Shown here piece after piece: positions 2,291 to 62,208 of a stretch of 64,000 nucleotides of DNA; positions within the stretch are counted from its first letter, which is position 1, and each line of letters starts with the position of its first letter. This DNA comes from Okamejei kenojei (Eukaryota), in the NCBI GenBank assembly GCA_035221665.1, contig JAVHYY010000119.1, positions 62,001 to 126,000 on the forward strand, in the 5' to 3' direction. The notes below the pieces were generated by a model. That model made no database searches. It saw nothing but the letters and a program-made list of their open reading frames with translations, and was not told the origin of the DNA. A program made the position numbers and the translations under genes.

Positions 2291-2689
2291 GCTCATTATG
2301 GAAATGTTTTCAGGAGTGTGCTGTACGTGAGGGAGCAATAACAATTTAAGAGAGGAACTTCAAGGACAAAACACAAAGTGCTGGAATAACTCAGTCTCAG
2401 GCATGCACAAGTAATGACACATGCTTCTTTGATCCCAAACCCAATTTTTCCAGATTATGTCAAGTTTATTGTTGTATGCATGTACGATGTACATACAATG
2501 AAAGGTTACTTTGCAGAAGCATTCCAGGCTTAGAGACGGATTCACATGAAACATTAATTATACGGTAATTCTGTAAAACTGTTACGAGAGGACTACAACA
2601 CATCAGTCAAATCATGTTCTTATGAAAAGTCCACGGTAGAGCACGAGGAATCACGGTTGCATTAGGATTGCACAAATGGTTTAAAGAAT

Positions 2690-3640
2690 ATAGTTGCAGG
2701 TAAGTAGCAGATCCTGAACCTGGTGGTGTGGAACTTCAGGCTTCAGTATCTCCTACCTGATTTAGCAGCGAGACGAGAGAACGGCCCGGATGAATAGGAA
2801 CCTTGATGACCGATGCGGCCTTCTTGTGGTGGGTTCTCATGTAGATGCGATTGATGGTGGGAAGGAGCGTGCCTGTGGTGAACTGGGCCAGGCCCACCAC
2901 ACCATGCAGCCTCTTGCATTCCTGCGCATTGGATTGCCTTAGCAGGCCAATATGAAACTAGTCAGGATACTTTCCACAGTACATCTTTACAAGTTTGTTA
3001 AGAGTTCAGCTAGAGGTTATTGTTGCAGCACCACTCAACCAGAGTCTTCCTCTCTGTAGTATCCTGTTGAAAAGGAAGGTACAGAGAACCAGGTATTGGA
3101 ACTTACTGGTAATTTGGAGGGGATGATAGTGTTGAATGCCGAGCCGCAATTGATGAATAGCTGCCTGACATGTATTCTAGATCGTCTAGAGCAGAGTGCA
3201 GAACCAGTGAGATAGTATTTACGGTTGACCAGCTGCGACAGTTAGCAAACTGAAGTGGATCCAAGTCATTTGTGAGGCAAGAGTTGATTTGCACCCGAAC
3301 CAACCTCTGTAGGCACTTTATTACTGTGAATCTAAGTGCCACCAGATGGTAGTCAGTGAGGGAGATCACAGTGGTCGTCTTAAACATGGGAACAATAGAT
3401 TCACTGTTGGAGCAGGATTGAACCTTGACCACAGATGTAAGAGGTTGAGGATATTCTTAAATCCTCAAAGTAGTTACTCGACACAGGATTTTAGTACTGA
3501 GCCATGAACACTATCTGGACTGGGTGCTTGATGTGAACTCATCTTCTTGAAGGAAGATCTGACATTGACTTCAGAGACCGAGATCACAAGGTCATCATAG
3601 CTGTGAGTGTTCAGGAAGGAGCCAATAGAAGTTATGTTAT
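2690..3640 (-). mobile_element. Decayed Rex1/Babar-like LINE reverse transcriptase fragment
   Basis: Minus frames give SEVNVRSSFKKMSSHQAPSPDSVHGSVLKSC and LDPLQFANCRSWSTVNTISLVLHSAL, which match the Rex1-type RT region. Frameshifted. Confidence 0.75.
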
Positions 3641-3676
3641 CAAGGAACAGGAATGTGCAATAGCCTAGACATATTG

Positions 3677-3687
3677 TCAAAGTATAC
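3677..3687 (-). CDS. Candidate terminal mini-exon (G-I-L-stop) of the left KRAB gene
   Basis: ttcactccacag|GT ATA CTT TGA lies 140 nt after the KRAB donor and is phase-compatible. The right arm has GGT ATA TTT TGA at the homologous site. Confidence 0.3.
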
Positions 3688-3827
3688 CTGTGGAGTGAAA
3701 TAGAAGGATCTAACCAACGACTTGGTCTCAGAAAGCACATATCTATTTAGTTTTCATATGGGGAAATCTCATGTCAGCATGCACCAATAGAAAAGGGAAC
3801 ATAAGGGACATAACATATTGTACAAAC

Positions 3828-3951
3828 CAATGGCAAGTATGGCTTCATAATCCCACTTCATGTTCTTATAACGGAGCTTCTCCCAGTCAGTTATTTCTTC
3901 AAACTCTTCCTTTGAAAAATAGTCAGCAATGTATTTGAAATGGTCAGCATC
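3828..3951 (-). CDS. PRDM9-type (ancestral) KRAB exon, left arm of the inverted duplication
   Basis: ttttccag|GAT...ATTG|gtttgt, 124 nt, phase 0/1. Encodes DADHFKYIADYFSKEEFEEITDWEKLRYKNMKWDYEAILAIG, closely resembling the PRDM9/SSX KRAB ([41 protein letters not shown], recalled). No SET or zinc-finger exons are seen in the window. Confidence 0.85.
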
Positions 3952-4805
3952 CTGGAAAAACAAACATTGTATCTAATACACTTTGGTGCATAATCTGTAA
4001 TCATTAGTTATTAATTCCAAAACTGATTTTAAAATGTCATTTATTTATTTCATATAGGACAATTCCAGGATATTGAATCACAAATTAAAATTAACAGGTA
4101 ACTTCTTCACGATAGAAATGAGGTATTTCTTCACTCAGAATATAGTGACTTTTTTTTCTAGGGTTTCGAAAGAAATCAGTTGTTAATTGCTTTCCAGATC
4201 AAAATATTATTGATTCAAAGATGTAATAAACCATATCAAAGAAGTAATAAACCATGAGTGGAAACGGCACTTAGGGTGAAGGTCAGGAGTGATCTGCCCT
4301 GAAAGGTCCAGACCCAAAATGTTGCCTGTCATGATTCAAGATTGCAGCTTCCAGCTAACAGACATCAGTGTCTACATTTCTGGCAATGAAGACAGTGACT
4401 AACATGGGCTTCCCCCACACTAAAGTGAGGACCAGCACCCAATGGCTGCTGCAAAAAAAAACTATTGTAAAAAATAAATTGTTGGTGGTAATCAGCAAGC
4501 CAGGCAGCATCTGTGGAGGTAGAAACTGGGTGAATGTTTCAAGTTAATATTCTTTCCTCACAGCTGGGGAAGTTGCCAGATGGAGACAGACAACTAGAAG
4601 GATGAGGGAGATGGTCTGAAGGCCTCCCAGATCAATATTAATGTCAGTGATCCACTCCAGAGCTCATGGAACTCATCCACTCCTCACTGACACCAATTCC
4701 TGGGGCTATGATGGTCTGAGAAGGAGCAGCAGCATCTTCCCCGTTCCCAGGCCCCTGAGAGGACATTTATCCGGCATCTTCTGCCCGGTCTCCCTGGAGT
4801 CTCAC

Positions 4806-4829
4806 CTCTGGGCCCTGCGTCCCAGACAT
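4806..4829 (-). CDS. Candidate first coding exon of the left KRAB gene (MSGTQGPE)
   Basis: gagaccATGTCTGGGACGCAGGGCCCAGAG|gtgaga. Reasonable Kozak context, and the phase-0 donor is compatible with the KRAB exon acceptor at 3951. Confidence 0.5.
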
Positions 4830-4879
4830 GGTCTCATCTCCTTCAGCAGCTTCTCGGTCTCCCTTCCTGAGCTCAGGCA

Positions 4880-5705
4880 CCCACCTCCTCACCTCACCTC
4901 CGCTCACTTCTCCTCACCTACACCTCGACTAAACCCCTCGCCTCAATTAAACCCCTCGCCTCAACCAAACCTCACACCTCACTATTAAAGGTAGACAAAT
5001 ATGCTGGAGAAACTCAGCGGGTGAGGCAGCATCAATGGAGCGAAGGAATAGTCTTCAGTCTGAAGAGGGGTCTTGACCTGAAACGTCACCTATTCCTTCG
5101 CTCCATAGAATCTGCCTCACCCGCTGAGTATCCCCAGCATTTTTATCTACCTTCAATTTTTCCAGCTTCTGCAGTTCTTTCTTAAACCTCACGTCGAATA
5201 AACTTCACCTCACACCTAACCCTCAACTCACTAAACCTCGCCTCGACTAAACTTCACCTCAACTAAACCTCACACCTCTAATAAATCGTCACCTCAACCA
5301 AAGTTCACCTCAGCTAAAGCTCAACTGAACGAAATTCACACCTCACTAAATCTTGCTTTGATTAAACCCCTCGCTTCAACTAAACATTACGTCTACTAAA
5401 GTTCTCCTCGACTAAACCTCACACCTCACTACTAAACTACTCCTCACACTTAAACCTCGCTTCGACTAAACCCCTCGCCTCGAACCTCAGCCCAACTAAA
5501 CCTCACCTCATCTAAACCTCAACTAATCCTCACCTCAGCTAATCCTCACCTCAACTAATCCTCACCTCAACTAATCCTCACCTCAGCTAATCCTCACCTC
5601 AACTAAACCTCAACTAATCCTCACCTCAACTAAACCTAAACCTCACCTCAGCTAATCCTCACCTCAACTAAACCTCAGCTAATCCTCACCTCAACTAAAC
5701 CTAAA
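4880..5705 (-). repeat. Degenerate CCTCA/ACTAAA-based repeat tract (left arm), interrupted by a Penelope-derived palindromic insert at about 4989-5184
   Basis: Runs of cctcaactaaacctca. It is the reverse complement of 6150-6495. Confidence 0.85.
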
Positions 5706-6152
5706 CGTCACCTCAATAAACTCCACCTCGCGACTAGACTATTTATAGCCCTCCCCCCCCCCCCCCCCCCCGACCAACGGGAGGGGGCAACGGGGAGAGC
5801 GGCGCAAGCGCAGGCGGCAGGGGGGGAGGGGCTGCGGCCGCCGCGGGCGGGAGGGGGCCTCGGGCTAGACGTCAATGTCGACGGACGGGCGTGCGACCCC
5901 CCCCCCCCCCGGCTCTCTCGGGCAGTGCGCCTGCGCCGCTCTCCGTGTCCCCCCCCCCCCCCCCCCCCCGCGCGAGGATGGCGGGAAACTCGCGACGGCT
6001 TTTGGCGCCTTTTCCCGCCGAGGGCCGGAGTTGTCCACGTGACCCGCGCTCTGGGTGGAGCCGCTCCGCTCACGTGAGGCGCCGCCAACGGCCGGGGGGA
6101 GGGGCTATAAATAGTCTAGTCGCGAGGTGGAGTTTATTGACGTGACGTTTAG
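5701..6152. promoter_or_regulatory. Bidirectional CpG-island promoter with inverted TATA cassettes
   Basis: About 50-bp near-perfect inverted repeats GGCTATAAATAGTCTAGTCGCGAGGTGGAGTTTATTGA(g/c)GTGACGTTTAGG, with TATA at 5740-5747 (-) and 6106-6113 (+). They flank a CpG-rich spacer with CAACGG x3, GGCGGGA/TTTCCCGCC, CACGTG x2 and TGCGCCTGCGC. Confidence 0.7.
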
Positions 6153-6495
6153 GTTCAGTTGGGCTGAGGGTCAAGGCGCGGGGTTTAGTTGAAGCGAGGT
6201 TTAGGTGTGAGGAGTAGTTTAGTAGTGAGGTGTGAGGTTTAGTCGAGTTGAAGTTTAGTAGACGTGAGGTTTAGTTGAAGCGAGGGGTTTAATCGAAGCA
6301 AGGTTTAGTGAGGTGAATTTAGCTGAATTGAGGTGTAGCTGAGGTGAAGTTTGGTCGAGGTGATTGAGGGGTTTAGTTGAGGTGAGGTAAAGTTTAGTCC
6401 AGGCGATGGCATAGTCGAGGTGTGAGGTTTAGTTGAGGCGAGGGGTTTAATTGAGGTGAGGGTTTAGTCGAGGTGTAGGTGAGGAGAAGTGAGCG
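6150..6495 (+). repeat. TGAGG/TTTAGT-based G-rich repeat tract (right arm)
   Basis: Inverted homolog of 4900-5500. Confidence 0.85.
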
Positions 6496-7689
6496 TCAGT
6501 GTGGGGGAAGCCCATGATAGTCTTCACCAAAGATTATAGAGGAGCAAGATGCGCCACTCAGCGAAAAAGACATATAAAAAGTACAAATAAAAGATAATAA
6601 AACATGTGTGATAGTTGACGACATGTTAACGGACTGCCTCGACCAAAGATGGCATCGACTATGGCGTCTACATCATTAGGAAACTAGGCTCCTCTATAAT
6701 CTTTGTCTCTCGATCTCCCTCTGTGTAATCTGCTCCAAAGCTACAGAGCAGTTGCAAGCAAAGATTATAGAGGAGCAAGATGCATTAGAAAGTTATTATA
6801 TGTATTTGTAATAGATCTTTACTTACCTCTCAATCTCGATCTCTCTCTCCACCTCCCCCTCTCTCTCCCTCTCTCTCCCCTCTTCTCTCGATCCCTCTCT
6901 ATCTCTCTCTCCCCTCTCTTCTCTCGATCGCTCTCTCTCTCGCCTCTCTTCTATCGATCTTCTCCATCTCTCTCTCTCCCCTCCCGATCGCTCTCTCTCC
7001 CCTCTCTTCTCTCAATCTCTTTCTCTCCCCTCAATCTCTCTCTCCCCTCTCGATCTCTTTCTCTCCCCTCTCGATATCGCTCTATCCCCTCTCTTTCGAT
7101 CTCTCTCCCCTCTTGACCTCTCTCACTCTCCCCTCTCCTCTCGATCTCTCATCACGATCTCTCTCTCCCCTCTCTATTTTTCTCTCTCTCTCCTCTCTTC
7201 TGTCGATTCCCCTCTCTCCCACCCCCTCTCTCCTCTCTCCCTCCCTCCCCTCTCTTTCTCCCTCTCTCTCTCCTTCCCTCTCTCTCTCCCTCTTTCCCCC
7301 TCTCTCCCCCTCCGTCCCTCTCTCCCTCCCTTCCCTCTGCGTGAGAGTTGGCAGCCCTGCTATGCCTTAGGTCCAAAAGAGGATAGAAATAAATTACTTA
7401 ATGGTCTTTGTAAGAAGATTTTAATAAGCTCTTCTATCTTTCCCATCTAATAAACACAGCAATACATAACACACAGCAATACAAAGACATGAACTTGTGC
7501 TGCAATAGAGTCAATGTTAGAATTGTAGCAATCTTTGTGAGTATCCACATGCACTATGGACTCAAATTCAAGAATAGAAAAATGCATAACATGACTTTTA
7601 AAAGGAAATGTAAAAAACTTCAAAAAGTGGAACATAAGTAAAGTGCATAATTTTCAAAATTTATTTATTTGAAGTAATACTATTCAAGA

Positions 7690-8400
7690 TCAAATCCAAG
7701 TGAGTTTATTGTCACGTGTCCCTGATGGTACAATGACATTCTTGACTTTGTTTCAGCACAACAGAACATAGTAGGCATTGACTACAGAACAGATCAGTGT
7801 GTCCATATACCATTATATAAATATATACACACATGAATAAATAAATTGATAAAGTACAAATAAAAGATAATGGGCTATTAATGTTCAGAGTTTGGTCCGA
7901 GCCATGTTTAATAGCCTGATGGCTATTGGGAAGTTGCTATTCCTGTACCTGGTCGTTGCAGTCTTTGGGCTCCTGTACATTCTACCTGAAGGTAGCAGGG
8001 AGATGAGTGTGTGGCCAGGATGGTGTGGGTCCTTGATGATACTGCCAGCCTTTTTGAGGCAGCGACTGTGATAGATCCCCTCGATGGAAGGAAGGTCAGA
8101 GCCGATGATGGACTGGGCAGCGTTAACTACTTTTTGCAGTCTTTTCCTCTTCTGGGCGCTCAAGTTACCGAACCAAGCCACGATGCAACCGGTCAGCATG
8201 CTCTCTACTGTGCACCTGTAGAAGTTAGAGTCCTCCTTGATAAACCGACTCCGTAATCTTATCAGGAAGTAGAGGCGCTGATGTGCTTTCTTAATATTTG
8301 CATCCGTGTTCTCGGACCAGGAAAGATCTTCAGAGATGTGCATGCCCACGAATTTGAAGCTCTTGACCCTTTCAACCATCGACCCGTTGATATAAACGGG
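7690..8400 (-). mobile_element. Rex1/L2-group LINE 3' fragment
   Basis: ORF 7885-8379 VERVKSFKFVGMHISEDLSW...KKAHQRLYFL...FYRCTVESMLTGCIVAWFG...IIKDPHHPGH, followed by a 3' UTR with AATAAA. Confidence 0.85.
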
Positions 8401-9026
8401 ACTTTTGCTTCAGCAGCAGCAGCCTCTACAGGAGGCTTTAAACGTTTGAGTGAGTCTGTGTGTGTGTGAGAGTCAGTGTGTGTGAGTATGTGTGTGTGCG
8501 AGTCTCTGTGTGTGGATCTGTGTGTGTGTGTGTGTATATATGCGTGCTTATATAAAAGCGTGCTTCATTGAATGATGACTTCTGAGATATATTATCAGAT
8601 TATCTTGGTTAAAATTTGACCGCGGCAAAGCGACATAAAGACACTGGGCAGCAACAAGAGACACAACAAGAAATAAATCAATAATTCTCATCTTTGACAT
8701 TTAAATTGTTCTTATATTTTAAGAGTTATTCACATTTTAAACTTTAATAAATCCTTTATCCACTTTTCATGCCTGTGTGTTCTTCATCACAATGGGAACC
8801 TAATGGGCAGGAATGGATACTCTGGGAGAGCCACTAAGAGCAAAGATCCTATAGCGGAGCAAGATGGACCACTCCTGCGAAAAACACAGAGTACGGTTTT
8901 TTATCACCTCAGTCCTAAATGACCTCCCCCTTATTCTAACACTGTGGCCCCTGGTTCTAGATTCTGGAAAAGTGGGATAACATTAGCTATCCTCCAATCC
9001 ACAGGAACTGATCCTAAATCTATTGA

Positions 9027-9279
9027 NNNNNNNNNNNNNNNNNNNNNNNNNNNNNNNNNNNNNNNNNNNNNNNNNNNNNNNNNNNNNNNNNNNNNNNNNN
9101 NNNNNNNNNNNNNNNNNNNNNNNNNNNNNNNNNNNNNNNNNNNNNNNNNNNNNNNNNNNNNNNNNNNNNNNNNNNNNNNNNNNNNNNNNNNNNNNNNNNN
9201 NNNNNNNNNNNNNNNNNNNNNNNNNNNNNNNNNNNNNNNNNNNNNNNNNNNNNNNNNNNNNNNNNNNNNNNNNNNNNNN
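9027..9279. other. Assembly gap
   Basis: N run. Confidence 1.
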
Positions 9280-10269
9280 TCATCTGACAAATAAGATAGA
9301 GAGCAATAGTGACGCTTTAAATCAAAGTTTCTTCTGATCCATGAAAAGGAAATGTATTTATCTCTCAAGGGCCTGGCCCACCATATATTTATATGAATGT
9401 GTGTTTTGTGTGCTCTGTAGTTTTGTGCAGTGTGTGTGGAAGCAATATAAGGGAAGCTGCACAATACAATGCAAGGGAAACTACGCAAAGGTGGGGCTGG
9501 GGAGGAAAGATGGGAGGGAAATGGTGGAACAGGGGGAAGAGGGAGAGAGGGAGAGAGAGGGAAGTTGGGAGAGAGAGAGAGGGAAGTTGGTAGAGAGAGA
9601 GGGAAGGAGGGAGAGAGAGAGGGAAGGAGGGAGAGAGAGAGGGAAGGGAAAGAGAGAGAGGGGGAAGGGAAGGAGGGAGAGAGGGAAAGGAGGGAGAGAG
9701 GGAAGGGAGGGAGAGGGAAGGGGGGAGAGAGTGAGAGAAGAGAGGGGAGAGAGAGAGAGATCGAGAGGGGAGAGAGAGAGATCGAGAGGGGATAGAACGA
9801 GATCGAGAGAAGAGAGTGGAGAGAGAGATAGAGAAGATAGGGGAGGGGCAGAGCTCGAGATCGAGAGGTAAGTAAAGATCTATTACAAATAAATCTAATA
9901 ACTTTCTAATGCATCTTGCTCCTGTATAATTGTTGCTTGCAACTAACTGCTCTGTAGCTATGGAGCGGATTACACGGCGAGAGGCATCCGCCAAAATGGC
10001 GGCCGTGACGTACTGTTACGTATTACACACCAGTCCATTGGATTTCGGAGGAGTGGTCTATCTTGCTCCTCTAGTATCTTTGGTCTTCACTGTCTTCATT
10101 GCCAGAAATGTAGACACTGATGTCTGTTTGTTAGTAGCTGGAATTGTGAATTTCAACAGGCAATATTTTGGGTCTGGACTTTTCAGGCAGATTGCACTTG
10201 ACCTGCACCCTAAATGCAGTCTCCTCTCCTATTATCATGTGGTTTATTACTTGAAAATAATAATGTGTT

Positions 10270-10945
10270 GATTAGTGTGTTCTCTGGTCTGTTTTATGTG
10301 GGCGAGGGGGTCGGGGGAAACATTTTTTCAATCTCTCAACTTGCCGGAGATGCGATTGTTTTCCGGATGGTATTTCCTGTTGCTCTGAGCCCTAACATCG
10401 TGGAGCTGTGGCCCTTCCTCGGGACTGACTTTGAGCCCCACCGCGTGGATGTGGATGAGGACTTGCCATTGGAGCCTGTGATCCCTTGCCTGGGATCGAC
10501 GCTCCAACCGCAGCATGCACATTTCAGCATCGGCAGTCAGGTAGAGACCAATGTCGGGAAGCTCCAAACGTTGCAGACGTTTTTGACCAGCCCTGACCTG
10601 GGGTCCAATCGCCGACGCAGGGCAGCTGAAATTCACCCCCCCCCCCCCCCCCGATGAAGGAGCTTGATCGCCCCAAAGCGGAGGGCCCGGCCGCCGGCTA
10701 AGGGGGCCAAGACCGCCCTGACAATGGAAGGCTCGAGGCCCCAGACCTCGGGAGAACAAAGAAGGGAAGAGATTGAACTTTTTTTCGCCTTCCATCACAG
10801 TGAGGAATCACTGTAGTGGATGTTTATGTTAAAATGTATCTTGTGTGTTCTGCTTTTTATTGGTATGACTGTATGGCAAATGAAATTCCTCGTCTGTTAC
10901 AAAACATACTTGGGTATTAAAGTTTGATTATGATGATTATGATTT
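10270..10945 (+). mobile_element. GC-rich non-autonomous LINE-derived element
   Basis: Shares the 3' region (TTTTCGCCTTCCA-CACAGTGAGGA...GTGGATGTTTATGTTAA...TATGACTG) with 17831-18683 (-) and 39390-39630. Ends in a (GATTAT)n-like tail. Confidence 0.55.
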
Positions 10946-11047
10946 TGCTGGAATGTAATTAACAACTGATCACCAACCCTTGACTGGATTTGTATTGCGT
11001 AAAACAAACAATACATTTAAAAAAATGTGTTTTGTTTATATTTCCAG

Positions 11048-11169
11048 GATGCTGACCATTTCAAAGACATTGCTGGCTATTTTTCCAAGGAAGTTTGAAG
11101 AAATAAGTGACTGGGAGACGCTCCGTTATAAGAACATGATGCGGAATTATGAAGCCGTGCTTGCTATTG
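11048..11169 (+). pseudogene. PRDM9-type KRAB exon, right arm, frameshifted
   Basis: tttccag|GAT...ATTG|gtttgt, 122 nt. By manual alignment it has 11 substitutions and a 2-nt deletion (AAGGAAG--TTTGAA) relative to 3828-3951. The ATG-exon region is absent from this arm. Confidence 0.85.
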
Positions 11170-11334
11170 GTTTGTAGAAAATATTACTTGCCTATTTTCT
11201 TTCCTTTTTGCCATTTTCGAATGATGCATGCTGACATGAGTTTTTTCCCCACATGAAATCTAAATAGATATGTGCTTTCTGAGAGCACGTCCTTGGTTAG
11301 ATCCTTCCACCTTCCATTTCACTCCTCTGGTATA

Positions 11335-12272
11335 GGGGGATTGCACGTAAGATCATCGGGTCAAAGGGCGTGACGCAAGGAGCAGCTCAATCCAGGTGGA
11401 GTACATGGCTGCTTCCGGCATGTACTGTTAATACAGGAAACGTATACATTCTTACCCGTTAAAAAACGGCGAAATTGTCATTTTTTGCACTGTAAATAAT
11501 TGTGGAAATCTGGGTAACAGTGAGAGACATTTATCCTACTTCAGAATTCCAAAAGTGAGGAGAAATGATGGTAGAGAGAAGCGACAGCTGAAGGGCCAAC
11601 TACAGCTAAAGTGGTTGGCGAACATTGGCCGTGCAGATATCAAGATTGAAAATACTGGCAATTATCACATTTGCTCACTGCATTTCATCAACAGTAAGGC
11701 ATTATTTGTTCTTTTTCCTTGATTCCTTTGGTATCTAAAAAGTTTCAGAATTGATAAATCTGTCTGTAAAATTTTAAAATTGCCCATGGTTCTCAAATGG
11801 TTCTGAAATGGGATTTTACATGCAAAAATAAAATGCTTCTGAAGCTAAATTTGTTAGCTGTTGTTATCCCTTCAGCTGTCGCTTCTCTCTACCATCATTT
11901 CTCCTCACTTTTGGAATTCTGAAGTAGGATAAATGTCTCTCACGTTTACCCCGATTTCCATAATTATTTACAGTGCAAAAATTTACTATTTCGGCGGTTT
12001 TTAACTGGTTGGTTACATTGAAAGCCATGGTGGGGTGGGAGTTTGGAACCTTCACGTGGTCCACCCTGTTTCAACGAATGCAATCAACCTGGCGTGCACA
12101 AGCAGAAGATCAAACAGAACAAGTTGTCTTACAACTTTGGGCTGTGCACGCCATACACAAGAAGAAGAAAGCCTTTGTCAGTGCTTACCTGCAGTTCATC
12201 GTGTGTACTCCAGTTGGCGTTGCATGGTAACAGTACGGGTCACGGGTCGTGACCTCAACTGCGTGCAATCTC
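11335..12272 (+). mobile_element. THAP-domain-bearing non-autonomous DNA transposon (ISL2EU/Harbinger-like)
   Basis: 11471-11695 encodes EIVIFCTVNNCGN...SYFRIPKV...KWLANIGRAD...HICSLHF, a C2CH THAP signature. Imperfect termini are GGGGATTGCACG and CGTGCAATCTCT. GGTATA occurs at both junctions. Homology with the left arm resumes at 12273. Confidence 0.7.
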
Positions 12273-12529
12273 TGGTATATTTTGAGAATGTGACTGAGGC
12301 CGGCTGGCTTCACCCTCTGCAGCGCTGCATCAATACATGGCTCATGCGAGTTGATCCCCAGTCTATATCCAATGGATTTGCTACATGGTCCCTGCTCCTG
12401 CGGCCGCCGTGAGATTCCCGAGGTGGGCAACGAGTGCATGTGTGGGACCCTGGTGAGTGCGGGCGGGAGGGAGGGCTTGGGCAGTGTCAGGAAATGGAGG
12501 CGAGACTCAAGGAACTGCAGTTTTTTTTT

Positions 12530-12835
12530 TAGTTTAGAGATACAGCACGGAAACACGCCCTTCGGTCCACCGGATCCGGGCCGACCAGTGATCACTGCAC
12601 ATTAACATTATCCTGCACCCACTAGGGACAATTTTTACATTTACCAAGCCAATTAACCTACAAACCTGCACGTCTTTGGAGTGTGGGGGAAAACCGAAGA
12701 TCTAGGATAAAATCCACGCAGGTCATGGGGAGATCGTACAAAGTCCATACAGACAGGATCCATAGTCGGGATCGAACCCGGGTCTCCGGCGCTGCATTCA
12801 CTGTAAGGCAGAAACTCTACCACTGCGTCACCGTG
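12530..12835 (-). mobile_element. HE1-like tRNA-derived V-SINE
   Basis: tRNA-like head (GGTGACGCAGTGGTAGAG...GGTTCGATCCC), central TTTGTAGGTTAATTGGC and a CR1/HER1-like tail GTTTCCGTGCTGTATCTCTAAACT. Further copies lie at about 13465-13730(+), 15553-15845(+), 15940-16225(-), 19523-19790(+), 32830-33100(-), 35250-35550(-), 37495-37790(+), 49178-49485(+), 56608-56850(+) and 63968-64000(+). Confidence 0.8.
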
Positions 12836-14339
12836 ATGGATTAGAAATAAAAAACAAAATGCTGGAGTAACTCAGCAGGTCTGGCAGCATCAATAGTGGA
12901 CATGGATAGGCGACGATTCAGGTTGAGATCCTGGGAAAATTGACTGTTGTGAGGAACTGCGGGGAAGATGGTCTGAGTTGTGAGGGAGGAGGATTTGAGG
13001 GGAAGTGAGGGAGACTGAGGGACAGGAGGTGTTTGTGGATAAGGGGTGAACAGTTCCTCTCACAGAACAGCGCTTCTTTCATCATCATCCCTTCCACAAC
13101 ACAGCACTCCCTCCTCACCGCCCCTCCGGCAGCTCGCTCTCCTCACCGCACCCCCTGCAGTGCTCCCTCCTCACCACCCCTTCCACAGCACAGTGCTGTT
13201 TCCTCAGAACTGTCAGAAACCCAGGCATTCTAACCCAATGGACAGACTGGGAGAAGACCAGAATGAAGTCAGAGGAAAACAAGAAAAAAGTGGGATGCGT
13301 CCCGGCTCGTTTAGTTTAGTTTATTTCAGAGATACAGTGTGGAAACAGGCACTTCAGCCCACCGAGCCTGTGCCGACCAGCAGTCATACGTTCACACGCT
13401 CGTTCTATGTTTAATTTAGAGATACAGTGTGGAAACAGGCCCAAGACAGCACCAGTAGTTGTTGGTGCAGCAGTAGAGCTACCCCTTACAGCGCCAGACA
13501 CCCAGGTTCGATCGCAACTATGGGTGCTTGTCTGTACGGAGTGACCTGCATGTGTTTTCCCCAAGATCTTCAGTTTCCTCCCACAATCCACAAACGTACG
13601 GGTTTGTAGGTTAATTGGCTTGGTATAAATGTAAATTGTCCCCAGCGTGTGTGGGATAGAGCGGGGATCGCTTGTTGGCTTGGACTCGGTGGGCCACAGG
13701 GCATCTTTCCACACTGTATCTACAAACTAAACCTCGAAATGTTCTATGGATGTACGGAAACGTATTATTTATTTTATTTAAAGCACTTTGGTTTCAACGC
13801 GAGTTGATTTAAAATGTGCTATATATATAAAACTTACATACTTACAGAACTAGTGTGTGAATGGGTGATCGATGGTCAGTTAGGATTAGGTGGGCCGAAG
13901 GGCCTGTTTCCACGCTAAAAAAAATCAATGCTGTTATTGTACTTGCCATTAACTGTACACTCTCTCCTTGTGCCTTCAACCTCACAAAGTGCAACACCGC
14001 ACTCATGCTCAGATTAAATTCCGTCTGTCATTTCTCCGCCCCTTTTGCATCTAATCTTCATCCCGCGGTATCTTCCGACAGCTTCCTCACTGTCTGTAAC
14101 TCCTCCAATCTTGGTGTCATCAGCAAACCCACTCAGCCACAGATCGCCAGCATCTTCACACATGCGCTCTGACGGTGAGGGACAGCGCCCCCATGTGGTC
14201 CTGGACATTTTTGCTGCACCTGAGTTCACCGCTTTGCCATGAATGCCGGAGTGGTCACTGCCGAACCCGGCTATCTCAACTTCACAAACCCTATCTACTC
14301 GTGCAAACTCCTAGATCCAGCTGCACATCAATGATGTCA

Positions 14340-23907: not shown

Positions 23908-26900
23908 ATTTTACTTCGGAGTCACGTGAGTGACTACGTGAATAGAAGCCCGTACAGCCGTTGGTGCGTCATGACGTCAGACGCTGGTGCAGTCGGCCGG
24001 TTGGAGCAGCAGCGCTCCTCCGAGCGGTAAGTTTAAACAGGTTACACGAAAAGCTGGAGAATTCAGCGGGTGCAGCAGCATCTAAGGAGCGAAGGAGATG
24101 GGCGACGTTTCGGGTCGAGACCCTTCTTCAGACTTCACCCTCCATTCTCCAGCATCTGCAGTTTTCGTTAACAGGTTTAAACGGAGGTAAGGTTTGTTGA
24201 AATACTTTACCACAGGTCATTTTCTGCGGCGGTTGGGAGTAGATATGTTGCAGAAAGTGAAGAAGGTGTCGGCGAGGCGCTCCGGGGGTAGAAAGGAAAA
24301 GTGGCAGGAGAGTGTTGAGGATGGAGGCCCGTCTGGTACACCTGGTCCGGTGCTGGCTACACAGCCAGTGGTTGCGGACCCACTGCCGGGGGGGCAGTGG
24401 AGGCTTGTCTGTAGGTGGAAGGCCATGGCAAGTCTCTGTGGCCCGTAGATGAGTCGGGCCTGGAGGTTATACCTCCATAGGAGAGTCCATTTGCTCACGG
24501 CTCTCCCCGTCGAGATTCTATTACAAAAGAATGCTCGACAGGGGCCAGCTCCGTGAGGAGGAGTGGTGCCCAAGCCAGGCTGATGGAGAGCTTGTGCTAG
24601 CAGCACCTGTTTCAGGGCTGCAGAAACTATCCTGCCTGTGAGGAGGATGTTCCAGCTCCGTGAGGAGGAGTGGTGCCCAAGCCAGGGTGATGGAGAGCTT
24701 GTGCTAGCAGCACCTGTTTCAGGGCTGCAGAACTATCCTGCCTGTGAGGAGGATGTTCTATCAGGGCCGTTTGTGACACTGTTTCTATGCTGGGGGAGAG
24801 CAAGGTGTTCGGTTGGAGGTAATTCCGAACATTGCTGGGAAGTTTGCTGAGTGTAGAGAGGCAGGAAAGGCGATTGATGTAGAATTGGCCGAAGCCATTC
24901 AGTATATGCTCTCCCACCAGTTACAGGAGCTAGCTATGGATGAAGTAGCAAAAAACTATAAAGCTCCTGTTAATTGTGATCTCCTGAAGGTACCGCTGGT
25001 TAATCACCAAATTTGCATAGATGGGTTTGCCTGCTAGGGCCTAGGAGATGAAGTTTTTAAAAAGTGCTTAAACTGTTGTAAGCAGGTATATTACAGCTGT
25101 GGTGAAATTTATTGATACAAATGATATGGTTGAAGCACACCAGGATGAACTGGGACTCCTTTGTAATGCATTTTGAAATTAATAATGTCGGGAGGGCCGC
25201 TATTAGGCCAGTGCTAACCCGAATTTGGCGAGTTGTGCAAACCGACCAGTGTACCACCACAAAATCTGCTGTTTGGTGGTAACCTTGCAAAAAGGGTCAA
25301 AGACTGTTATGAGGTTGTTATAACCATGGCCCTCATTAAGCCAGCTGGAAGCAAGGCAAAAAAGGTTCTCTACAAGAAGTCGAGGACAACAAGGCCGCAA
25401 GGAAAGATGCTGATAAGGAATATAACATTTGACAGACGATGAATTAACTGATGTTCCTGTTCAAATTGGGGGAAGGTTAAAATTGCTCTCAAACAATGGC
25501 AGCAGTTGACATCAGATTTGTTCATACTTAGTGTATTGAAGGGGTGGAAAAATTGGATTTTACTATGACAGTCTACCTAATCAACATTTTTCCTAGTCGT
25601 AAACTTATTTTTCAGATGAGGAAAATGTGCTTATTCAAGCAGAGATTCAGTCGTTACATAAGAAGGGGTAATTGAGCCTTCTGTCTATCAAAGTCAACAA
25701 TTTCTGTCAAGTATATTTCCCAGATCTAAAAGACTGGGGGATGTAGAAATTATTCTGGATTTATCGAATTTGAACAAATTTGTTTGTTATAGGCATTTCA
25801 AAATGGAGAACTTTACCACGGGCAAACATCTAGTGTCCAAAGGGTATTATATGGCAACCATTGATTTAAAGAATGCGTATTACGCAGTGTCTATTCATGG
25901 TGATGATAGAAGATACTTGAAATTTATTTGGATGACTGAGCTGTGGCAATTCAGGACATTGCCGAATGGATTAACTTCAGCTCCTAGATTATTTACTAAA
26001 TTGGTAAAACCTGTGTTAGCATTGCTTAGAGCTCAGGGGCATGTGGTAATGGCCTATTTAGATGATTTCTGATTGTTGGAAAGACTCATGCTGAAACTCA
26101 ATCATCAGTTTCAGTTGTTAAAATCACTTTTGAACAAATGGGATTTGTTATTCACCCAGGTAAATCTAAATTATCACCAGTCCAAATTATTGATTATCTG
26201 GGATTTACCATTAATTCCAATCACATGTTGGTAACTTTGCCCAGGGATAAATTGAATCAGTTAATTGAGGACTGTGTTAATCTCGTTGGAGAACAACGGC
26301 CTTTGATTAGACAAGTAGCCAGTTTTATTGGGAAGTTGTTGCAGTCTTTCCAGCTGTGCAGTATTGTCCTCTGCATTATCAACAATTACAACCATCAAAG
26401 GAACAGGCACTGAGAATACAAAGGGCTATTTTTGATAGGCCTATGCAGTTGTCAGCTGGGGCGATTGCTGACATACAATGGTGGATAGTACATGTTTCAA
26501 AAAATTTAAGGAAGGTTTCGTGGAATCACCGTCACTGATATTACAGACTGATGTGAGTGCACTGGGTTGGGGTGCAACAGATATGTCTTCTAGTTGTGGA
26601 GGCAGATGGAATGTGGATGAGACATCGCTTCCTCAATTAAGAGGGATTGATTATTTAGAGTTGTTGGGCACCTGGTATGGGCTCAAAGCTTATTGTTCTA
26701 CAAGGAGGGATCTGCATGTGCAGCTCAGATTCACAACACCACAGCAGTGGCATATGTAAACCACATGGGTGGAGTTAAGTCACAGTCTTGTGATAGACTG
26801 GCTAACCAGATTTGGAGCTGGTGTATTGACCAAAATATCTGGCTTTCAGCACTTTATTTGCCAGGAAGAGGTCACGTCAGTTAATGACAACATTGAATGG

Positions 26901-28667
26901 ATGTTAAATCAGGATGTGTTTAACCAAATGATTGATCAGTATGCATTGCCAGATATTGACTTGTTTGCATCTCGATTAAATCATCAGTTACCTAGATATG
27001 TTTCATGGTAACCAGATCCAGAGGCAGTAGCAGTGGATGCATTTTCGCTGCATTGGGTGAGGAATATTTGTGTATGTATTTCCTTCATTCTGTCTCATCA
27101 GCAGATGTTTGCAAAAGATCAAGGAGGATTCCGCTTCAGAGGTATTGGTAGTGCCAGATTGGCCTACACGAGCATGGTTTCCCGTTGTATTACAAATGGC
27201 TAGGGAGCCTTACATGCTTATGCCCAAGAATAAAAATCTACTGGTAAATCCAGTCACTGGGGATCAACATCCTTTATAGGATCGTATTGATCTGTTAATT
27301 TGCAGATTTTAAGGAGGCCATACCTGGGGAGAGGACTGTCTCATCGGACGGTGGATGTTCTCACGTCGGCCTGCAGGGATAGTACACAGCAGCAATATAT
27401 CACCTATATAAGGAAGTGGGAGCAATTCTGCCTACAGCAGGATATTGTACATCACACGGCAGGGATCACAGGTGTATTGGAGTTTGTCAACTCTTTATTG
27501 TGACCAAAAAATTAAGTTACAGTGCAATTAATTCAGCCAGAAGTGCTCTGTCTTCTTATTTACCTATGAATGCAGAATTGCATACAGTAGGGACACATCC
27601 GTTAGTTCACGATTCATGAAGGGAGTTTTCAATTCTAATCCTCCTAAACTCAGGTATGCCGGTATTTGCAATGTGAGTGAGGTTTTTATGCTTCTTCGCC
27701 AGTGGGCTCCGGTTACAAGCCTATCTATAGCCAAATTAACTATGAAGGTGGTCATGCTTCTGGTGTTGGTTTCAGCCAACGTGTACAAACATTGCAAAAA
27801 GCTACGGCTAGATAGAATGCATGTGTCGGCTGATGCCATTATATTTTATGTCTATGATTTGCTTAAACATAATAAAAGAGGCATGACAGGATGTAAGATG
27901 GTGTTTTCAGCATACCCCGCAGATGATCGCTTCTGTATAGTCTCACATTTATCTCTTTACATTGAGATTACTAAACCTCTGAGAGGAACAGAGTTGGCTT
28001 TGTTTATTAGTCACAAAAAACCACACAGTAAGGTGTCGGAGCAAACGATTTCAAGGTCCTCGCGGCCGCAGGATGGTCCAGTGAGCTAACTTTTCAGAGG
28101 TTTTGTATCACAAGCCGATTTCAAGGCTCGGGGTGTTTGCTGATTCTGGTGTCAGTACTGTTACATTTTTCCCCTGAGTTAGAGGGGTGTTGTTATGATT
28201 TGTTTGTAAATAAACTGTTGTTTCATTTAACAAATGTATTACTGATGCATGATTGATTGTTAACGACTTTTGAGTCAATCCAGGCAGTGTGAACGTCGGA
28301 TTTGAGTCTGCGGCGTGAATTCACAGTGCTTTGAAGTCTTCACGTAGTCACTCACGTGACTCCGAAGTAAAATAGTAAGATTAAACGAGAACTTACCAGT
28401 TTGAAGTTTGATCTTTATTTTATGAGGAGTCGAGTTGAGGGACTACGTGCCCTCCGCTCCCACCCTCATAGATCTCATCTGGTAGTTCTAGTTTTATCAT
28501 CTTACCGTTATACTTCAGTCATTGTTAGCTGTGAATTCATTCCGCTGCTTTGAAGATTGACGCACCAACGGCTGTACGGGCTTCTATTCACGTAGTCCCT
28601 CAACTCGACTCCTCATAAAATAAAGATCAAACTTCAAACTGGTAAATTCTCGTTTAATCTTACTATT
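23908..28667 (+). mobile_element. DIRS1-type tyrosine-recombinase retrotransposon, structurally complete but with frameshifts
   Basis: Left ITR at about 23932-23971 is inverted at about 28558-28597. The ICR at about 28340-28450 is complementary to both termini. ATT occurs at both ends. Coding remnants: RT (DLKNAYY...LPNGLTSAPRLFTK...YLDD), RNase H (TDVSALGWG...NTTAVAYVNHMGG), N6-adenine methyltransferase-like (DIDLFASRLN...DAF...YVFPSF...VPDWP) and YR (SAINSARSALS...LALFIS...AGWSS). Confidence 0.92.
24545..24758 (+). repeat. Tandem duplication of about 107 bp in the DIRS gag region
   Basis: CCAGCTCCGTGAGGAGGAGTGGTGCCCAAGCCAGG...GAGGAGGATGTTC occurs twice. Confidence 0.9.
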
Positions 28668-40850: not shown

Positions 40851-41212
40851 CACCACTACTCTTCACGTTATATATTAATGATTTGGACGTGAGGATTGAA
40901 GGCTTTGTGGCCAAGTTTGCAGATGATATGAAAATAGGTGGAGGGGCAGGTAGTGTAGAGAAAGCAGGGACTCTGCAGATGGACATGGACAGGTTGGGGG
41001 AGTGGACAGAAAAGTGGCAGATGGAATATAGTGCAGCAAAGGAGGGAGTGACACACTGTGGGAGGGGCGGTGAGGAGAGAGGCTCTACAGCTACACTACC
41101 ATGCAGCTCTTCTACGCTCTGTACACACCACAGCGCAGGATAAAAGTGTGGAAAGTGAGTCCAGTGAACTGACAGGGTGTTCGCTGCTAAAGATTGTTCC
41201 TTCTCTCCTCAG

Positions 41213-41581
41213 CCGTGGTGTCGGAACAGTGGAGTGCGGACATTCCACTAGATGTGACAGCGCAGAATGGTTTGTGTGCACGGATTCCGTGTCACTACAG
41301 GTACCCGTGGTATCTGAAGAATAAACCACGGACTGGAATCTGGTTTAACAGTGACATGCAGAACAACAAAGTTCTGGTAGCCTTCCACTCCGGGGATCCC
41401 AGTCTAGAATCATCAAAGTTTCAGCATCGGACCCGGCTGTCTGGAGTCCTGAGAGACAACGACTGTTCCCTGGTTATAGACAACGTCACACAGCAAGATG
41501 CAGGTCGTTATTTATTCAGAGTTGAATTCACTGGCGGATGGGTTTACAGCTACCCCACTGTAACACAGCTCCGTGTTATTG
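41213..41581 (+). CDS. Siglec-like gene, V-set Ig exon
   Basis: ctcctcag|...G|gtaagt, 369 nt, phase 1/1. Motifs W..GLCARIPC.Y.YP...GIWF...FQHRTRL.G....DCSLVI......DAGRYLFRVE show the Siglec Cys pattern and the F-strand Arg. Confidence 0.93.
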
Positions 41582-42560
41582 GTAAGTGCTCTGTATAACT
41601 CACTCATTCACTCAACAGTTACTTCCCAGCTGTTATCAGGCAACTGAACCATCCTACCACAACCAGAGAGCAATGCTGAACTACCATCAACCTCACTGGT
41701 GAACCTCGGACTATCCTTGATCGGACTTTGGACTGTACACGTTCCCTATTCACACACACACCACAGCATCAGGATCCTTCTGGTTAATTCCTGGATCATC
41801 GTGACACCTCCAGTTTTTGCACTGTTATTACCAGGTTTTCATTGCCCATATATGCTCCTAATATCGACTCCATCTACACTTCACTCAGCCTGAACTACAC
41901 TAAACAATGACTGTCTTATCGTTACTGCGCTTAGTGGAGAACTCTGTCGCATCTTCCCGATCACAGGTCATCATAACATTCCTGATCCCCGACCTTTTCA
42001 ACCTCCCCTGACCATCGTACCTCCTTGTTCAGGGATCATCCTTGTTTAGTTTAGTTTGGATAGTTAATATTATTGTCAAGTGTACCGAGGTACAGTGAAA
42101 GGCTTTTTTGTTGCGTGTTATCCAGTCAGTGGAAAGACAATACATGATTACAATCGAGCCGTTTACAGTGTACAGCTGCATGATAAGGGAATAATATTTA
42201 GTGCAAGGTTAAGCCAACAAAGTCCGATCAGGGATAGTCTGAAGGTCACCAATGAGGTAGATAGTTCAGGACCGCTCTTTGGTTGTGGTAGGATGGTTCA
42301 ATTGCCTGATAACAGCTGGGAAGAAACTATCACTGAATCTGGAGGTGTGCGTTTTCACACTTCTGTACCTCTTGCCCGATGGGAGAGGGGAGAATAGGGA
42401 GTGACCGGGGGTGAGACTCGTCCTTGATAATCTGGAGGTGTGTGTTTTCACACTTCTGTACCTTGTAAAAACATAATTCCTCGTGTGGGACTGGGATTAC
42501 GATGTGAACCGATGTATCTTGTGATACTTAACTAACAGTATCTGTTTCTGTGTGTGTTAG

Positions 42561-42854
42561 ATTTCACAGATAAACCCACGATATTCCCTGCTGAAATGGT
42601 GGCAGGTCAGCCTGTGAACGTGTCCTGCATCTTCAACACCACGTGTGATGGAACGGCACCCACCTTAACCTGGGTCACCCCCGCTGATGAACCACCGTCA
42701 GCCTCACACAGCGTAACTCAGCGGGGAGACACTCTGATATATTCTTCTGATCTGTCCCTGACCCCAGCGCTCAAACATCACGGGAAAAACCTCACCTGCA
42801 GCGTCAGATACCCAACTGTGTCATCGGAGCAGAACCTCACAGTGACTGTGCAAT
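42561..42854 (+). CDS. Siglec-like gene, first C2-set Ig exon
   Basis: tgttag|...T|gtaagt, 294 nt. DFTDKPTI...VSCIFNTTCDGTAPTLTW...LSLTPALKHHGKNLTCSVRY includes the extra Cys used for the Siglec inter-domain disulfide. Confidence 0.93.
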
Positions 42855-43729
42855 GTAAGTACGGAGATCGTTTATTGTGCAGGAACAGCAATAATCCATT
42901 AGCAGTGCTGATACATGAGGTCATAGGCGATATGAGCAGAATTAGGCCATTCGGCCCATCATGTCTACTCTGCCATTCAATCATGCTGATCTATCTCTCC
43001 CTCATAATCTCTTTCTCGTGCCTTCTCCCCATAACCTCTGACACCCATTCAAATGAACACCAAAAGCTGGAGTAAATCAGCGGGACAGACAGCATCTCTG
43101 GAGAGAAGGAATGGGTGGCGTTTCGGGTCGAGATACATCTTCAGACTGAAAGGCACGGGAAAGGGAAACGAGAGATATGGACGATGATGTAGAGAGATGA
43201 AGGACCTACCTGATCTCACGGTTGCTAAACACTTTAATTCTCCTTCCCATCCCCACACTGACCTTTATGTCCTAGGACTCCTCCACTGTTAGAGTGAGGC
43301 TAAACGCAAATTGGAGGAACAGCATCTCATATATTGGGCAGTTTACAGCTCAGTGGTATGAATATAGATTTCTCTAATTTTAGGTCGCCCCGGCATTCCC
43401 TCTCTCTCCATCCCTCCCCCACCTAAGTCGTACCAGCGTCTCGTTCTCACCCAACAAACAGATAATAATGGCCTGTTTCCTTTATCATCGTACAATTTTT
43501 GCATGTTTCTCATTCTTGTTCTTTATCTCTCTACACCATCATCTATATCTCTCATTTCCATAAACATAGAACTAGTGTGTGAACGCTTGTTCGATGGTCG
43601 GCGCGGACTCAGTGGGCTGAAGGGCCTATTTCCACGCTGTATCTCTAAAGTCTAAAGACTAAAGTCTTTTACAATCCAAGGATCGCGGATGTGTCACAAA
43701 ACTGGTTGCTGAGTTTTATCTGTTTGCAG

Positions 43730-44011
43730 ACGCCCCCCAGAATCTCTCAATCACTTCCCCCAACAACGTGAACAATTCCTGGGTCAGTGTAAAGGAAGGA
43801 AACTCTGCAGCGATCCTCTGCTCCGTCCAGAGTTTCCCAGCATCTAACCTGACGTGGAGACATCTCGGTGTCACGCTGAACACAACACGTTCCAGCAATG
43901 AGCTGTGGATGAAGTTCCCTCAGCTGACACGGCAGGATGCTGGGGTCTATCAGTGTGTGGCGGAGAATGAACACGGGACAGCAGAGACGGATGTGACCCT
44001 CACTGTAGAAT
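43730..44011 (+). CDS. Siglec-like gene, second C2/I-set Ig exon
   Basis: tttgcag|...T|gtgagt, 282 nt. YAPQNLSI...ILCSVQSFPASNLTW...DAGVYQCVAENEHG. Confidence 0.92.
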
Positions 44012-44070
44012 GTGAGTAGACACACACTGCCATGTCTATAAACGCAGATGGATTATTGGCCCATGAGAGA

Positions 44071-44371
44071 NNNNNNNNNNNNNNNNNNNNNNNNNNNNNN
44101 NNNNNNNNNNNNNNNNNNNNNNNNNNNNNNNNNNNNNNNNNNNNNNNNNNNNNNNNNNNNNNNNNNNNNNNNNNNNNNNNNNNNNNNNNNNNNNNNNNNN
44201 NNNNNNNNNNNNNNNNNNNNNNNNNNNNNNNNNNNNNNNNNNNNNNNNNNNNNNNNNNNNNNNNNNNNNNNNNNNNNNNNNNNNNNNNNNNNNNNNNNNN
44301 NNNNNNNNNNNNNNNNNNNNNNNNNNNNNNNNNNNNNNNNNNNNNNNNNNNNNNNNNNNNNNNNNNNNNNN
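44071..44371. other. Assembly gap within a Siglec intron
   Basis: N run. Its true size is unknown and it could hide further exons. Confidence 1.
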
Positions 44372-46357: not shown

Positions 46358-46690
46358 GAGATGCTGACTGACCCGCTGGGTTACTCCAGCACATTGTACC
46401 TATCAACGTTCTCCAGAGATGCTGCCTGACCCGCTGAGTTACTCCAGCACTTTGTACTTATCTGTGTTCTACCGAGATGCTGCCTGACCCGCTGAGTTAC
46501 TCCAGCACTTTGTACTTATCTGTGTTCTACAGAGATGCTGCCTGACTCGCTGAGTTACTCCAGCACTTTGTACATATCTGTGTTCTCCAGAGATGCTGCC
46601 TGACCCGCTGAGTTACTCCAGCACTTTGTACTTATCTGTGTTCTACAGAGATGCTGCCTGACCCGCTGAGTTACTCCAGCACTTTGTGTC
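46358..46690 (+). repeat. Tandem array of about 59-bp units derived from the Penelope pseudo-LTR
   Basis: AGAGATGCTGCCTGACCCGCTGAGTTACTCCAGCACTTTGTACTTATCTGTGTTCTAC occurs about 5.5 times. Confidence 0.9.
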
Positions 46691-48243: not shown

Positions 48244-48525
48244 ATGCTCCGTGGAATCTCTCAATCGCTTCCCACAATGGCGCAAACAGTTCCCGAGTCA
48301 GTGTAAAGGAAGGAAACTCTGCAGCGATCCTCTGCTCCGTCCAGAGTTTCCCAGCATCTAACCTGACGTGGAGACATCTCGGTGTCACGCTGAACACAAC
48401 ACGTTCCAGCAACGAGCTGTGGATGGAGTTCCCTCAGCTGACACGGCAGGATGCTGGGGTCTATCAGTGTGTGGCGGAGAATGAACACGGGACAACAGAG
48501 AGGGAAGTGACCCTCACTGTAGAAT
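48244..48525 (+). CDS. Siglec-like gene, third C2/I-set Ig exon (duplicate of 43730-44011)
   Basis: tctttag|...T|gtgagt, 282 nt, with 20 nt differences from the previous exon by manual count. Confidence 0.92.
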
Positions 48526-61959: not shown

Positions 61960-62208
61960 GCTCCCGGTCTCCCAGAGCTGGGGCCCATTGGCTGCTGCAC
62001 TGCTCCCGGTCTCCCGGAGCTGGGGCCCATTGGCCACTGCACTGCACTGCTCCCGGTCTCCCGGAGATGGGGCCCATTGGCCGCTGCACTGCTCCCGGTC
62101 TCCCGGCACTGGGGCCCATTGGCCGCTGCACTGCTCCCGGTCTCCCGGAGCTGGGGCCCATTGGCCGCTGCACTCCACTGCTCCCGGTCTCCCGGAGCTG
62201 GGGCCCAA
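61960..62208 (-). repeat. 42-bp minisatellite (about 6 copies) in Tx1 ORF1
   Basis: Unit CTGCTCCCGGTCTCCCGGAGCTGGGGCCCATTGGCCGCTGCA. Confidence 0.92.

Follow-up and report, generated by a model that had tools for sequence, protein, structure and literature searches.

A mirrored, amplified PRDM9 5' end with a probable germ-cell promoter in a skate genome

Partial duplicates of PRDM9, turning over by birth and death beside one intact gene, are known from several lineages, primate PRDM7 being one such paralogue. Published accounts, in their accessible sections, report 1 to 11 truncated copies per species in cnidarians (bioRxiv 10.64898/2026.09.07.749791), recent duplications in cartilaginous fish (PMC5519329) and an amplification in catfishes (PMC11600626), and our own protein search returned seven PRDM9-like entries for Rhinoraja. 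As described in those sections the truncated copies keep SET or zinc fingers, and their promoters are not discussed. The skate family presented here consists of partial duplicates too, but it differs in its roughly 100 KRAB exons and in a subfamily that retains only promoter, exon 1 and KRAB exon, in head-to-head order on the two sides of a mirrored promoter. A second comparison is offered by SSX, a family with testis expression and an ampliconic, X-linked layout, which is likewise multicopy and has a PRDM9-type KRAB without SET or zinc fingers. SSX is described as confined to mammals and as keeping the SSXRD (PMC8835667, in the text available), whereas the skate family is without an SSXRD and its protein is predicted only.

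At the level of promoters, mouse germline genes silenced by PRC1.6 are marked by E2F6 sites and E-boxes, but the E2F6 motif occurs well beyond germline genes (2153 of 2533 peaks), according to the accessible part of PMC8195999; Prdm9 was not found named as a PRC1.6 target in the available portions of two papers, that one included. The skate core described below has an E2F6-type site and an E-box within 130 bp of a TATA box, a likeness of motifs alone to these PRC1.6-repressed CpG-island promoters, which are defined in mouse by binding and by silencing in the soma. Among the motifs of pachytene-activated elements those for MYB rank first (PMC10060231, partial text), and pachytene piRNA clusters, as far as the open text of PMC7782496 goes, have been described in placental mammals and tend to have long first exons and low CG. 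With the bidirectional pachytene piRNA promoters driven by A-MYB the skate core shares a two-way layout, a MYB-like site and transposon-rich flanks, but it appears to be an inverted duplication of the promoter of a protein-coding gene, and in place of a long first exon or intronless transcript and low CG it has a short predicted first exon of ~0.9 kb with a splice donor and a CpG o/e of 0.86. Our literature search, which extended to few subscription journals and often to partial texts, brought up neither an account of a palindromic, amplified PRDM9 promoter nor one of a KRAB-only PRDM9 family in skates.

In this study we analyse a 64,000-nucleotide stretch of the skate Okamejei kenojei (positions 62,001 to 126,000 of contig JAVHYY010000119.1), which we call the window, against the whole genome assembly (2.76 Gb, 1141 contigs). 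A sequence-only reading had proposed a divergent germline or meiotic promoter at the centre of a palindrome in the window. We find a mirror-image, amplified PRDM9 5' end in which the promoter is better kept than the coding exon, and the core itself is, judging by its homology, a duplicated PRDM9 promoter (Table 1).

Table 1. Features of the palindrome copy in the window and motifs of its core.
Feature	Position in window (strand)	Details
Intact PRDM9-derived promoter block	5973..6113 (+)	three E2F-like sites, two E-boxes, MYB-like site, G-run, TATA box
Left TATA box	5740..5747 (-)	within a 57 bp arm mirroring 6094-6150 at 95%
Left motif-block remnant	5748..5800	~130 bp missing relative to symmetric copies (alignment to L010, context search)
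Palindrome centre	5795..5945	inverted NRF1-like sites and CRE-like site; descends from the spacer between the inverted-repeat arms of the PRDM9 promoter
Left arm, predicted 5' untranslated leader	4830..5739 (-)	degenerate 11/16-mer repeats; presumably transcribed
PRDM9 exon 1, coding part	4806..4829 (-)	MSGTQGPE, GT donor; matches the start of annotated skate protein P0002
PRDM9-type ancestral KRAB exon	3828..3951 (-)	124 nt, open, AG/GT intact
PRDM9 intron 2 start	2301..3827 (-)	colinearity with contig C9 stops here; no exon 3 after
Right arm leader	6114..6526 (+)	joins straight to intron 1 sequence
Insertion, 3.56 kb	6527..10083	~24 bp terminal inverted repeats; absent from C628, C698 and C884 units
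Remaining right (B-type) arm	10087..13109 (+)	88-92% to C628, C698 and C884 units
Second KRAB exon, right arm	11048..11169 (+)	122 nt, frameshifted
TATA boxes TATAAATA	5740-5747 (-) and 6106-6113 (+)	outward-facing, 358 bp apart
MYB-like CAACGG	5775, 5788, 6086	exact motif
E2F-like GGCGGGA	5846, 5980	exact motif
E2F-like TTTTGGCGCC	6000	exact motif
E2F-like TTTCCCGCC	6011	exact motif
E-boxes CACGTG and TCACGTGA	6036 and 6070, respectively	exact motif
NRF1-like sites	5802 and 5926	inverted pair at palindrome centre
CRE-like GACGTCA	5868	exact motif

The core is flanked by imperfect inverted arms (~4900-5760 and 6094-6495), and the copy is lopsided and degraded, having lost the motif block on the left and the start exon on the right. 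In the right arm the leader abuts intron 1 sequence, so that the ATG exon is deleted there, and no exon 1 match was found on the plus strand of the window. The left leader carries an interspersed repeat (~4988-5187; repeat families D2, D4 and D6) that also lies between promoter and ATG at the PRDM9 locus on contig C9. The insertion in the right arm is likely a non-autonomous DNA transposon. An assembly fold-back artefact was rejected, the arms being 74-95% alike with indels and this insertion between them and the layout recurring elsewhere with diverged arms. Outside the palindrome, the window holds exons of a Siglec/CD22-like immunoglobulin-domain gene (41191-48533, plus strand; V-set, C2-set and I-set by Pfam), among them a near-duplicate I-set exon at ~48216-48533, and at 25662-28089 a reverse-transcriptase frame (Pfam RVT_1) followed by a frame similar to the tyrosine recombinase of DIRS-type elements.

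The PRDM9 origin of the element is indicated by both its promoter and its exons. The block is 82.6% identical over 161 columns to C9:88,109,117-88,109,269, upstream of PRDM9, and C9 carries, between 88.109 and 88.141 Mb and in this order, the block, the leader repeat, exon 1, the KRAB exon, exon 3, an exon at the position of the SSXRD and three PR/SET exons. The first of these PR exons is 92% identical to the Amblyraja PRDM7/9 protein and finds human PRDM9 at E=4.5e-36; the last is frameshifted in a visibly error-rich stretch, and the 20 kb past it, a stretch of poor sequence, yielded no zinc-finger array. The window copy is colinear with C9 only to ~1.5 kb beyond the KRAB exon. Its left KRAB exon is 71% identical to the C9 exon and 68% to residues 8-51 of P0002, a skate PRDM7/9; the match of that exon to Pfam KRAB (E=0.14) is below the cut-off, and a profile built from ten KRAB-exon copies ranks PRDM9 and other ancestral-KRAB proteins first among 101 matches. 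The annotated Amblyraja PRDM7/9 protein itself starts with exon 1 and the KRAB exon joined, and the closest protein matches come from skates and rays. A word-index protein search with the 41-residue KRAB exon gave no match among 3 candidates, and a whole-protein search of the genome was dominated by unrelated zinc-finger genes.

Of a complete PRDM9, the palindrome family retains the ancestral KRAB exon. Exon 3, SSXRD, PR/SET and zinc-finger exons were found neither in the window nor in the fetched stretches of C206, C628, C698 and C884, one short C-terminal-like fragment in the C628 stretch excepted, and on the palindrome-family contigs there was no match to exon 3 (40 of 46 candidates scored) or to the PR exon (36 of 36 scored). 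The SSXRD-position exon occurs only at C9 among the fetched loci; the Pfam SSXRD model matched nowhere in the genome, a search that must be insensitive since it missed even C9. The window has no zinc fingers and its KRAB is of the PRDM9 type, not the modern KRAB-A/B with a C2H2 array, and the promoter of a modern KRAB zinc-finger gene was rejected. The suggestion that the core could drive KRAB transcripts is supported to the extent that the left arm reaches a KRAB exon, but one of ancestral type that comes without zinc fingers.

All motifs listed in the sequence-only reading were recovered at their coordinates in a pattern check of the window, and their density holds up against background. The core (374 bp, 76% GC, 46 CpG) has 17 non-TATA motif matches, NRF1-like sites being counted on both strands, against a mean of 1.98 in 5000 dinucleotide shuffles, none of which reached 17, and an average of 1.9 across 71 CpG-rich windows taken from the fetched loci as controls (two highest 14 and 13); these controls are mostly transposon-derived and not true promoter islands. 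Chance was rejected as an explanation at 17 matches versus about 2 in the shuffles; the enrichment is real but its size is overstated, since the patterns were picked after the finding was known and those for E2F and E2F6 overlap. The surroundings, which had been called CpG-poor, are CpG-depleted, but moderately so (whole-window o/e 0.51). The right half of the core alone holds both E-boxes, three of the four E2F-like sites and the conserved MYB site. The two remaining CAACGG sites, 5775 and 5788, lie in the remnant of the deleted left block, in a left-hand context seen in none of the other fetched copies, and the exact context of the CRE-like site recurs in only four other places (loci L013-L092), with a variant in more than 20. 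Motifs of the PRC1.6 type, under definitions taken from the accessible part of PMC8195999, amount to three E2F6 sites TCCCGC and two E-boxes near the predicted start site. The motif layout is that of a bidirectional promoter, with two outward-facing putative core promoters less than 1 kb apart.

This two-way layout appears to derive from an inverted duplication and not from an evolved pair of different promoters. The PRDM9-type promoters on C9, C374 and C952 each contain an inverted repeat of 44-48 bp, 84-92% complementary and with its arms 150-200 bp apart, that spans the E2F-like sites and the first E-box. Followed from its downstream side, the C374 promoter aligns colinearly with a symmetric palindrome copy until the upstream repeat arm reaches its outer edge, and beyond that arm the native flank is replaced by the mirror of the downstream side. 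Among the fetched loci there are eight further cores with two outward TATA boxes, and in seven of them TCACGTGA stands on either side, by an exact-pattern count that misses cores split between loci. A fold-back or template switch at the 44-48 bp repeat would be the simplest origin of the palindrome: a break there would have turned the upstream flank into a mirror of the downstream side and so given two outward TATA boxes. The divergent promoter of the earlier proposal is kept as far as its two TATA boxes go, but as the probable product of an inverted duplication, in a copy that has lost a block and a start exon. Palindromic duplication seeded by inverted repeats and segmental duplication near telomeres are general mechanisms, and the skate case resembles them in the short inverted repeat at the junction, the tandem units of 94-98% identity and the PRDM9 pieces near chromosome ends; it differs in that the unit carries what by homology is a meiotic promoter, not a whole gene.

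The element has at least 116 matches on at least 31 contigs in its own genome (40 of 215 candidates scored), its best-kept part being the right half, ~5950-6130, which is present in both arms of many copies. Matches to single exons number 101 for the KRAB exon (all 142 candidates scored), at least 40 for exon 3 (40 of 46 scored) and 31 for the PR exon (36 of 36 scored; mostly fragments, some from other PRDM genes). On C628, C698 and C884 palindromes follow each other every 20-24 kb, in units of ~21.5 kb that are mostly 94-98% identical and from which the window contig is more diverged (about 88-92%). The remainder of the unit is largely transposon, with an LTR element encoding RT, RNase H and integrase and many LINE and SINE pieces. 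Of 15 KRAB matches on C4, C5, C8, C9, C10, C12, C23, C29, C31 and C39, 14 are no more than 4 Mb from a contig end, a count that leaves out four matches on C40, C42 and C43. Unequal exchange among repeats at chromosome ends and on microchromosomes may have spread the palindrome, partly as the 21.5 kb tandem units. A fold-back element or MITE, or another discrete transposon, was rejected: the flanks that copies have in common run to 15-21 kb and contain old transposons, and the arm ends vary.

Several other arrangements of PRDM9 pieces were seen in the genome. In a separate amplified subfamily (L068:4600-5800, L069, L070, L071, L073, L078 and L079) the block and the 5' end of a LINE stand back to back, the LINE being read in the direction away from the block, and the 10 kb fetched contain neither exon 1 nor a KRAB exon. 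At L046:6593-8545 and L048:6126-9226, 148 kb apart on C42, a sense LINE of the same family with open ORF1-like and endonuclease frames lies just 3' of the TATA box. From L033:9740 to L034:1950 (C9:88.0997-88.1019 Mb), and again at L049 and L050, the KRAB exon is followed by a short intron and a fused exon of PR end and zinc fingers, a KRAB-zinc-finger-like layout that appears to result from internal deletion of PRDM9 and is mostly broken. Exon 1 and the KRAB exon stand under a different MYB- and E2F-rich promoter with 13 motif matches at L085:4850-5000 (C58), to which the C406 copies L083 and L084 are related. Another family, of older PRDM9 fragments located near chromosome ends and with KRAB exons in tandem or in opposed orientation, is found on C4, C5, C8, C10, C39, C462 and others. 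Finally, L021:9638-9874 (C628) is an open exon with a GT donor, preceded by a short E2F- and E-box-rich tandem repeat; it resembles the start of a plakophilin and had no match among solved structures.

Conservation was compared among the 24 family arms that have block, exon 1 and KRAB exon. Pairs of arms differ on average by 4.2% in the block, by 8.4% in exon 1 and its flank, by 6.5% in the KRAB exon and by 12-14% in the introns, and the block differs less than its flank in 253 of 276 pairs, which are not independent of one another. CpG is kept at 93% over 19 block sites versus 30-60% over 14 sites elsewhere, and the non-CpG difference is 2.0% in the block versus 3.2-8.4% elsewhere. The proposal that CpG retention reflects an island unmethylated in the germline fits this pattern. 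Based on these comparisons and on the homology with the PRDM9 promoter, we favour, at a probability of roughly 58%, an inverted and amplified PRDM9 5' end that likely still acts as an unmethylated germ-cell promoter and whose transcripts are likely non-functional stubs. The germline or meiotic character claimed earlier thus gains the support of descent, and germline activity of the palindrome promoter is likely by homology, but the A-MYB and PRC1.6 logic is mammalian and extrapolated to a cartilaginous fish.

Under this favoured reading the block would keep recruiting the factors that turn PRDM9 on in meiosis and off in the soma, through MYB-, NRF1-, E2F- and MAX-type sites by analogy with mouse, and this recruitment would hold it free of methylation and slow its decay. 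Many copies would stay unmethylated and fire in germ cells, yielding truncated RNAs. In the window, transcription of the left arm would depend on the right-hand block that survives ~230-370 bp away, and its product would be no more than a peptide of ~68 residues (exon 1, KRAB and read-through into the intron), and the right arm would give non-coding RNA only. No RNA entry was listed for 3000-6550, and in three sequence runs of the same label, which are contigs and of which two are flagged as probably DNA, the listed joints include none between exon 1 and the KRAB exon; neither outcome has a bearing on expression. Testis RNA contained PRDM9 in nearly every vertebrate tested, which speaks for germ-cell firing, the sole exception being the elephant shark, a cartilaginous fish (PMC5519329, accessible sections); by analogy, that exception would count against germ-cell firing of the skate copies.

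The same data bear on a quite unlikely alternative, that the copies are silent hitch-hikers in segmental duplications and that the block is conserved through gene conversion and the low mutation rate of CpG islands. Motif and spacer columns within the block do not differ in minor-allele frequency (3.4% versus 4.3%, p=0.63, 51 distinct halves aligned), and block and flank distances are uncorrelated (Mantel r=0.06, p=0.29), so that the block could owe its conservation to gene conversion or to a low rate of mutation, without any activity. The exact TATA box is kept in 38 of the 51 halves, and motifs or TATA are deleted in several copies, the window copy included, which also fits silence. Retention of CpG is, however, confined to the block and does not extend to exon 1 ~1 kb away, a pattern that needs a continuing methylation-free state, and arm-to-arm conversion is not evident, since arms of the same palindrome (four pairs) differ by 2.8-5.7% in the block and are no closer than the family average of 4.2%.

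We also weighed, and find improbable, a functional KRAB-only germ-cell protein, convergent with SSX, that competes for the KRAB partners of PRDM9 and diversifies under selection. The fetched loci contain 71 KRAB-exon matches (66 near full length, 40 intact); of the 49 exons of the truncated family, 31 have an open frame and undamaged splice sites and 18 are broken, many arms keep ATG and donor, and the exon differs less among copies than nearby introns. Pairwise dN/dS is 1.36 within the family versus 0.18 among three PRDM9-like exons. By maximum likelihood, omega is 2.18 for 27 distinct family exons (twice the log-likelihood difference 4.4, p about 0.035), or 3.0-3.7 after dropping 10 CpG-touched codons (p about 0.05-0.09), but the 1.48 estimated from 37 distinct exons is not different from 1 (twice the log-likelihood difference 2.6), and the test covers only 41 codons, excludes beforehand exons with stops or frameshifts and draws on several contigs that look error-rich. 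The KRAB exon is thus under no purifying selection (dN/dS about 1.5-2.2), with a weak hint of diversifying selection on its peptide, and the open exons together with a dN/dS nominally above 1 leave room for a protein role. Against such a protein, the family lacks exon 3, SSXRD and any shared C-terminus, its read-through tails running from 2 to 28 residues, and ACG or GTG replaces ATG in several recent units. A search for short annotated proteins with the exon 1-KRAB N-terminus gave one match from one candidate, a 97-residue PRDM7-named entry aligned over less than half of the region. The KRAB of human PRDM9 neither binds TRIM28 nor represses (PMC8835667, in the text available), and a repressor role of the family peptide is therefore not expected.

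Likewise improbable is a source of small RNAs, in which neighbouring palindromes would converge over ~19 kb of transposon debris and yield two-strand RNA for piRNA or siRNA: conservation of the promoter but not of the coding exons, the convergent geometry on C628, C698 and C884, the LTR-retrotransposon and LINE/SINE content of the spacer and the adjoining of block and LINE 5' end in nine further loci agree with it, but that LINE is sense, not antisense, and the short first exon with a live donor and the CG-rich promoter are unlike those of pachytene clusters. That the mirrored, mobile PRDM9-promoter arrays act in meiosis in either capacity, as a diversifying KRAB-only family titrating PRDM9 partners or as two-strand small-RNA units, we regard as unlikely.

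The element offers the PRDM9 promoter of a cartilaginous fish, with motif types as in the control of meiotic genes in mouse, and if the binding is true this meiotic regulatory code would date to the base of the jawed vertebrates. PRDM9 has shed about 100 fragments in a single genome, well above the number per species in cnidarians. The copies also record a plausible route from a one-way to a two-way meiotic promoter, by fold-back at an inverted repeat followed by expansion of the array, and the element is raw material of the sort from which KRAB zinc-finger genes and SSX-like genes are thought to arise. Active copies, if there are any, could act as a sink for transcription factors of meiosis or for the partners of PRDM9.
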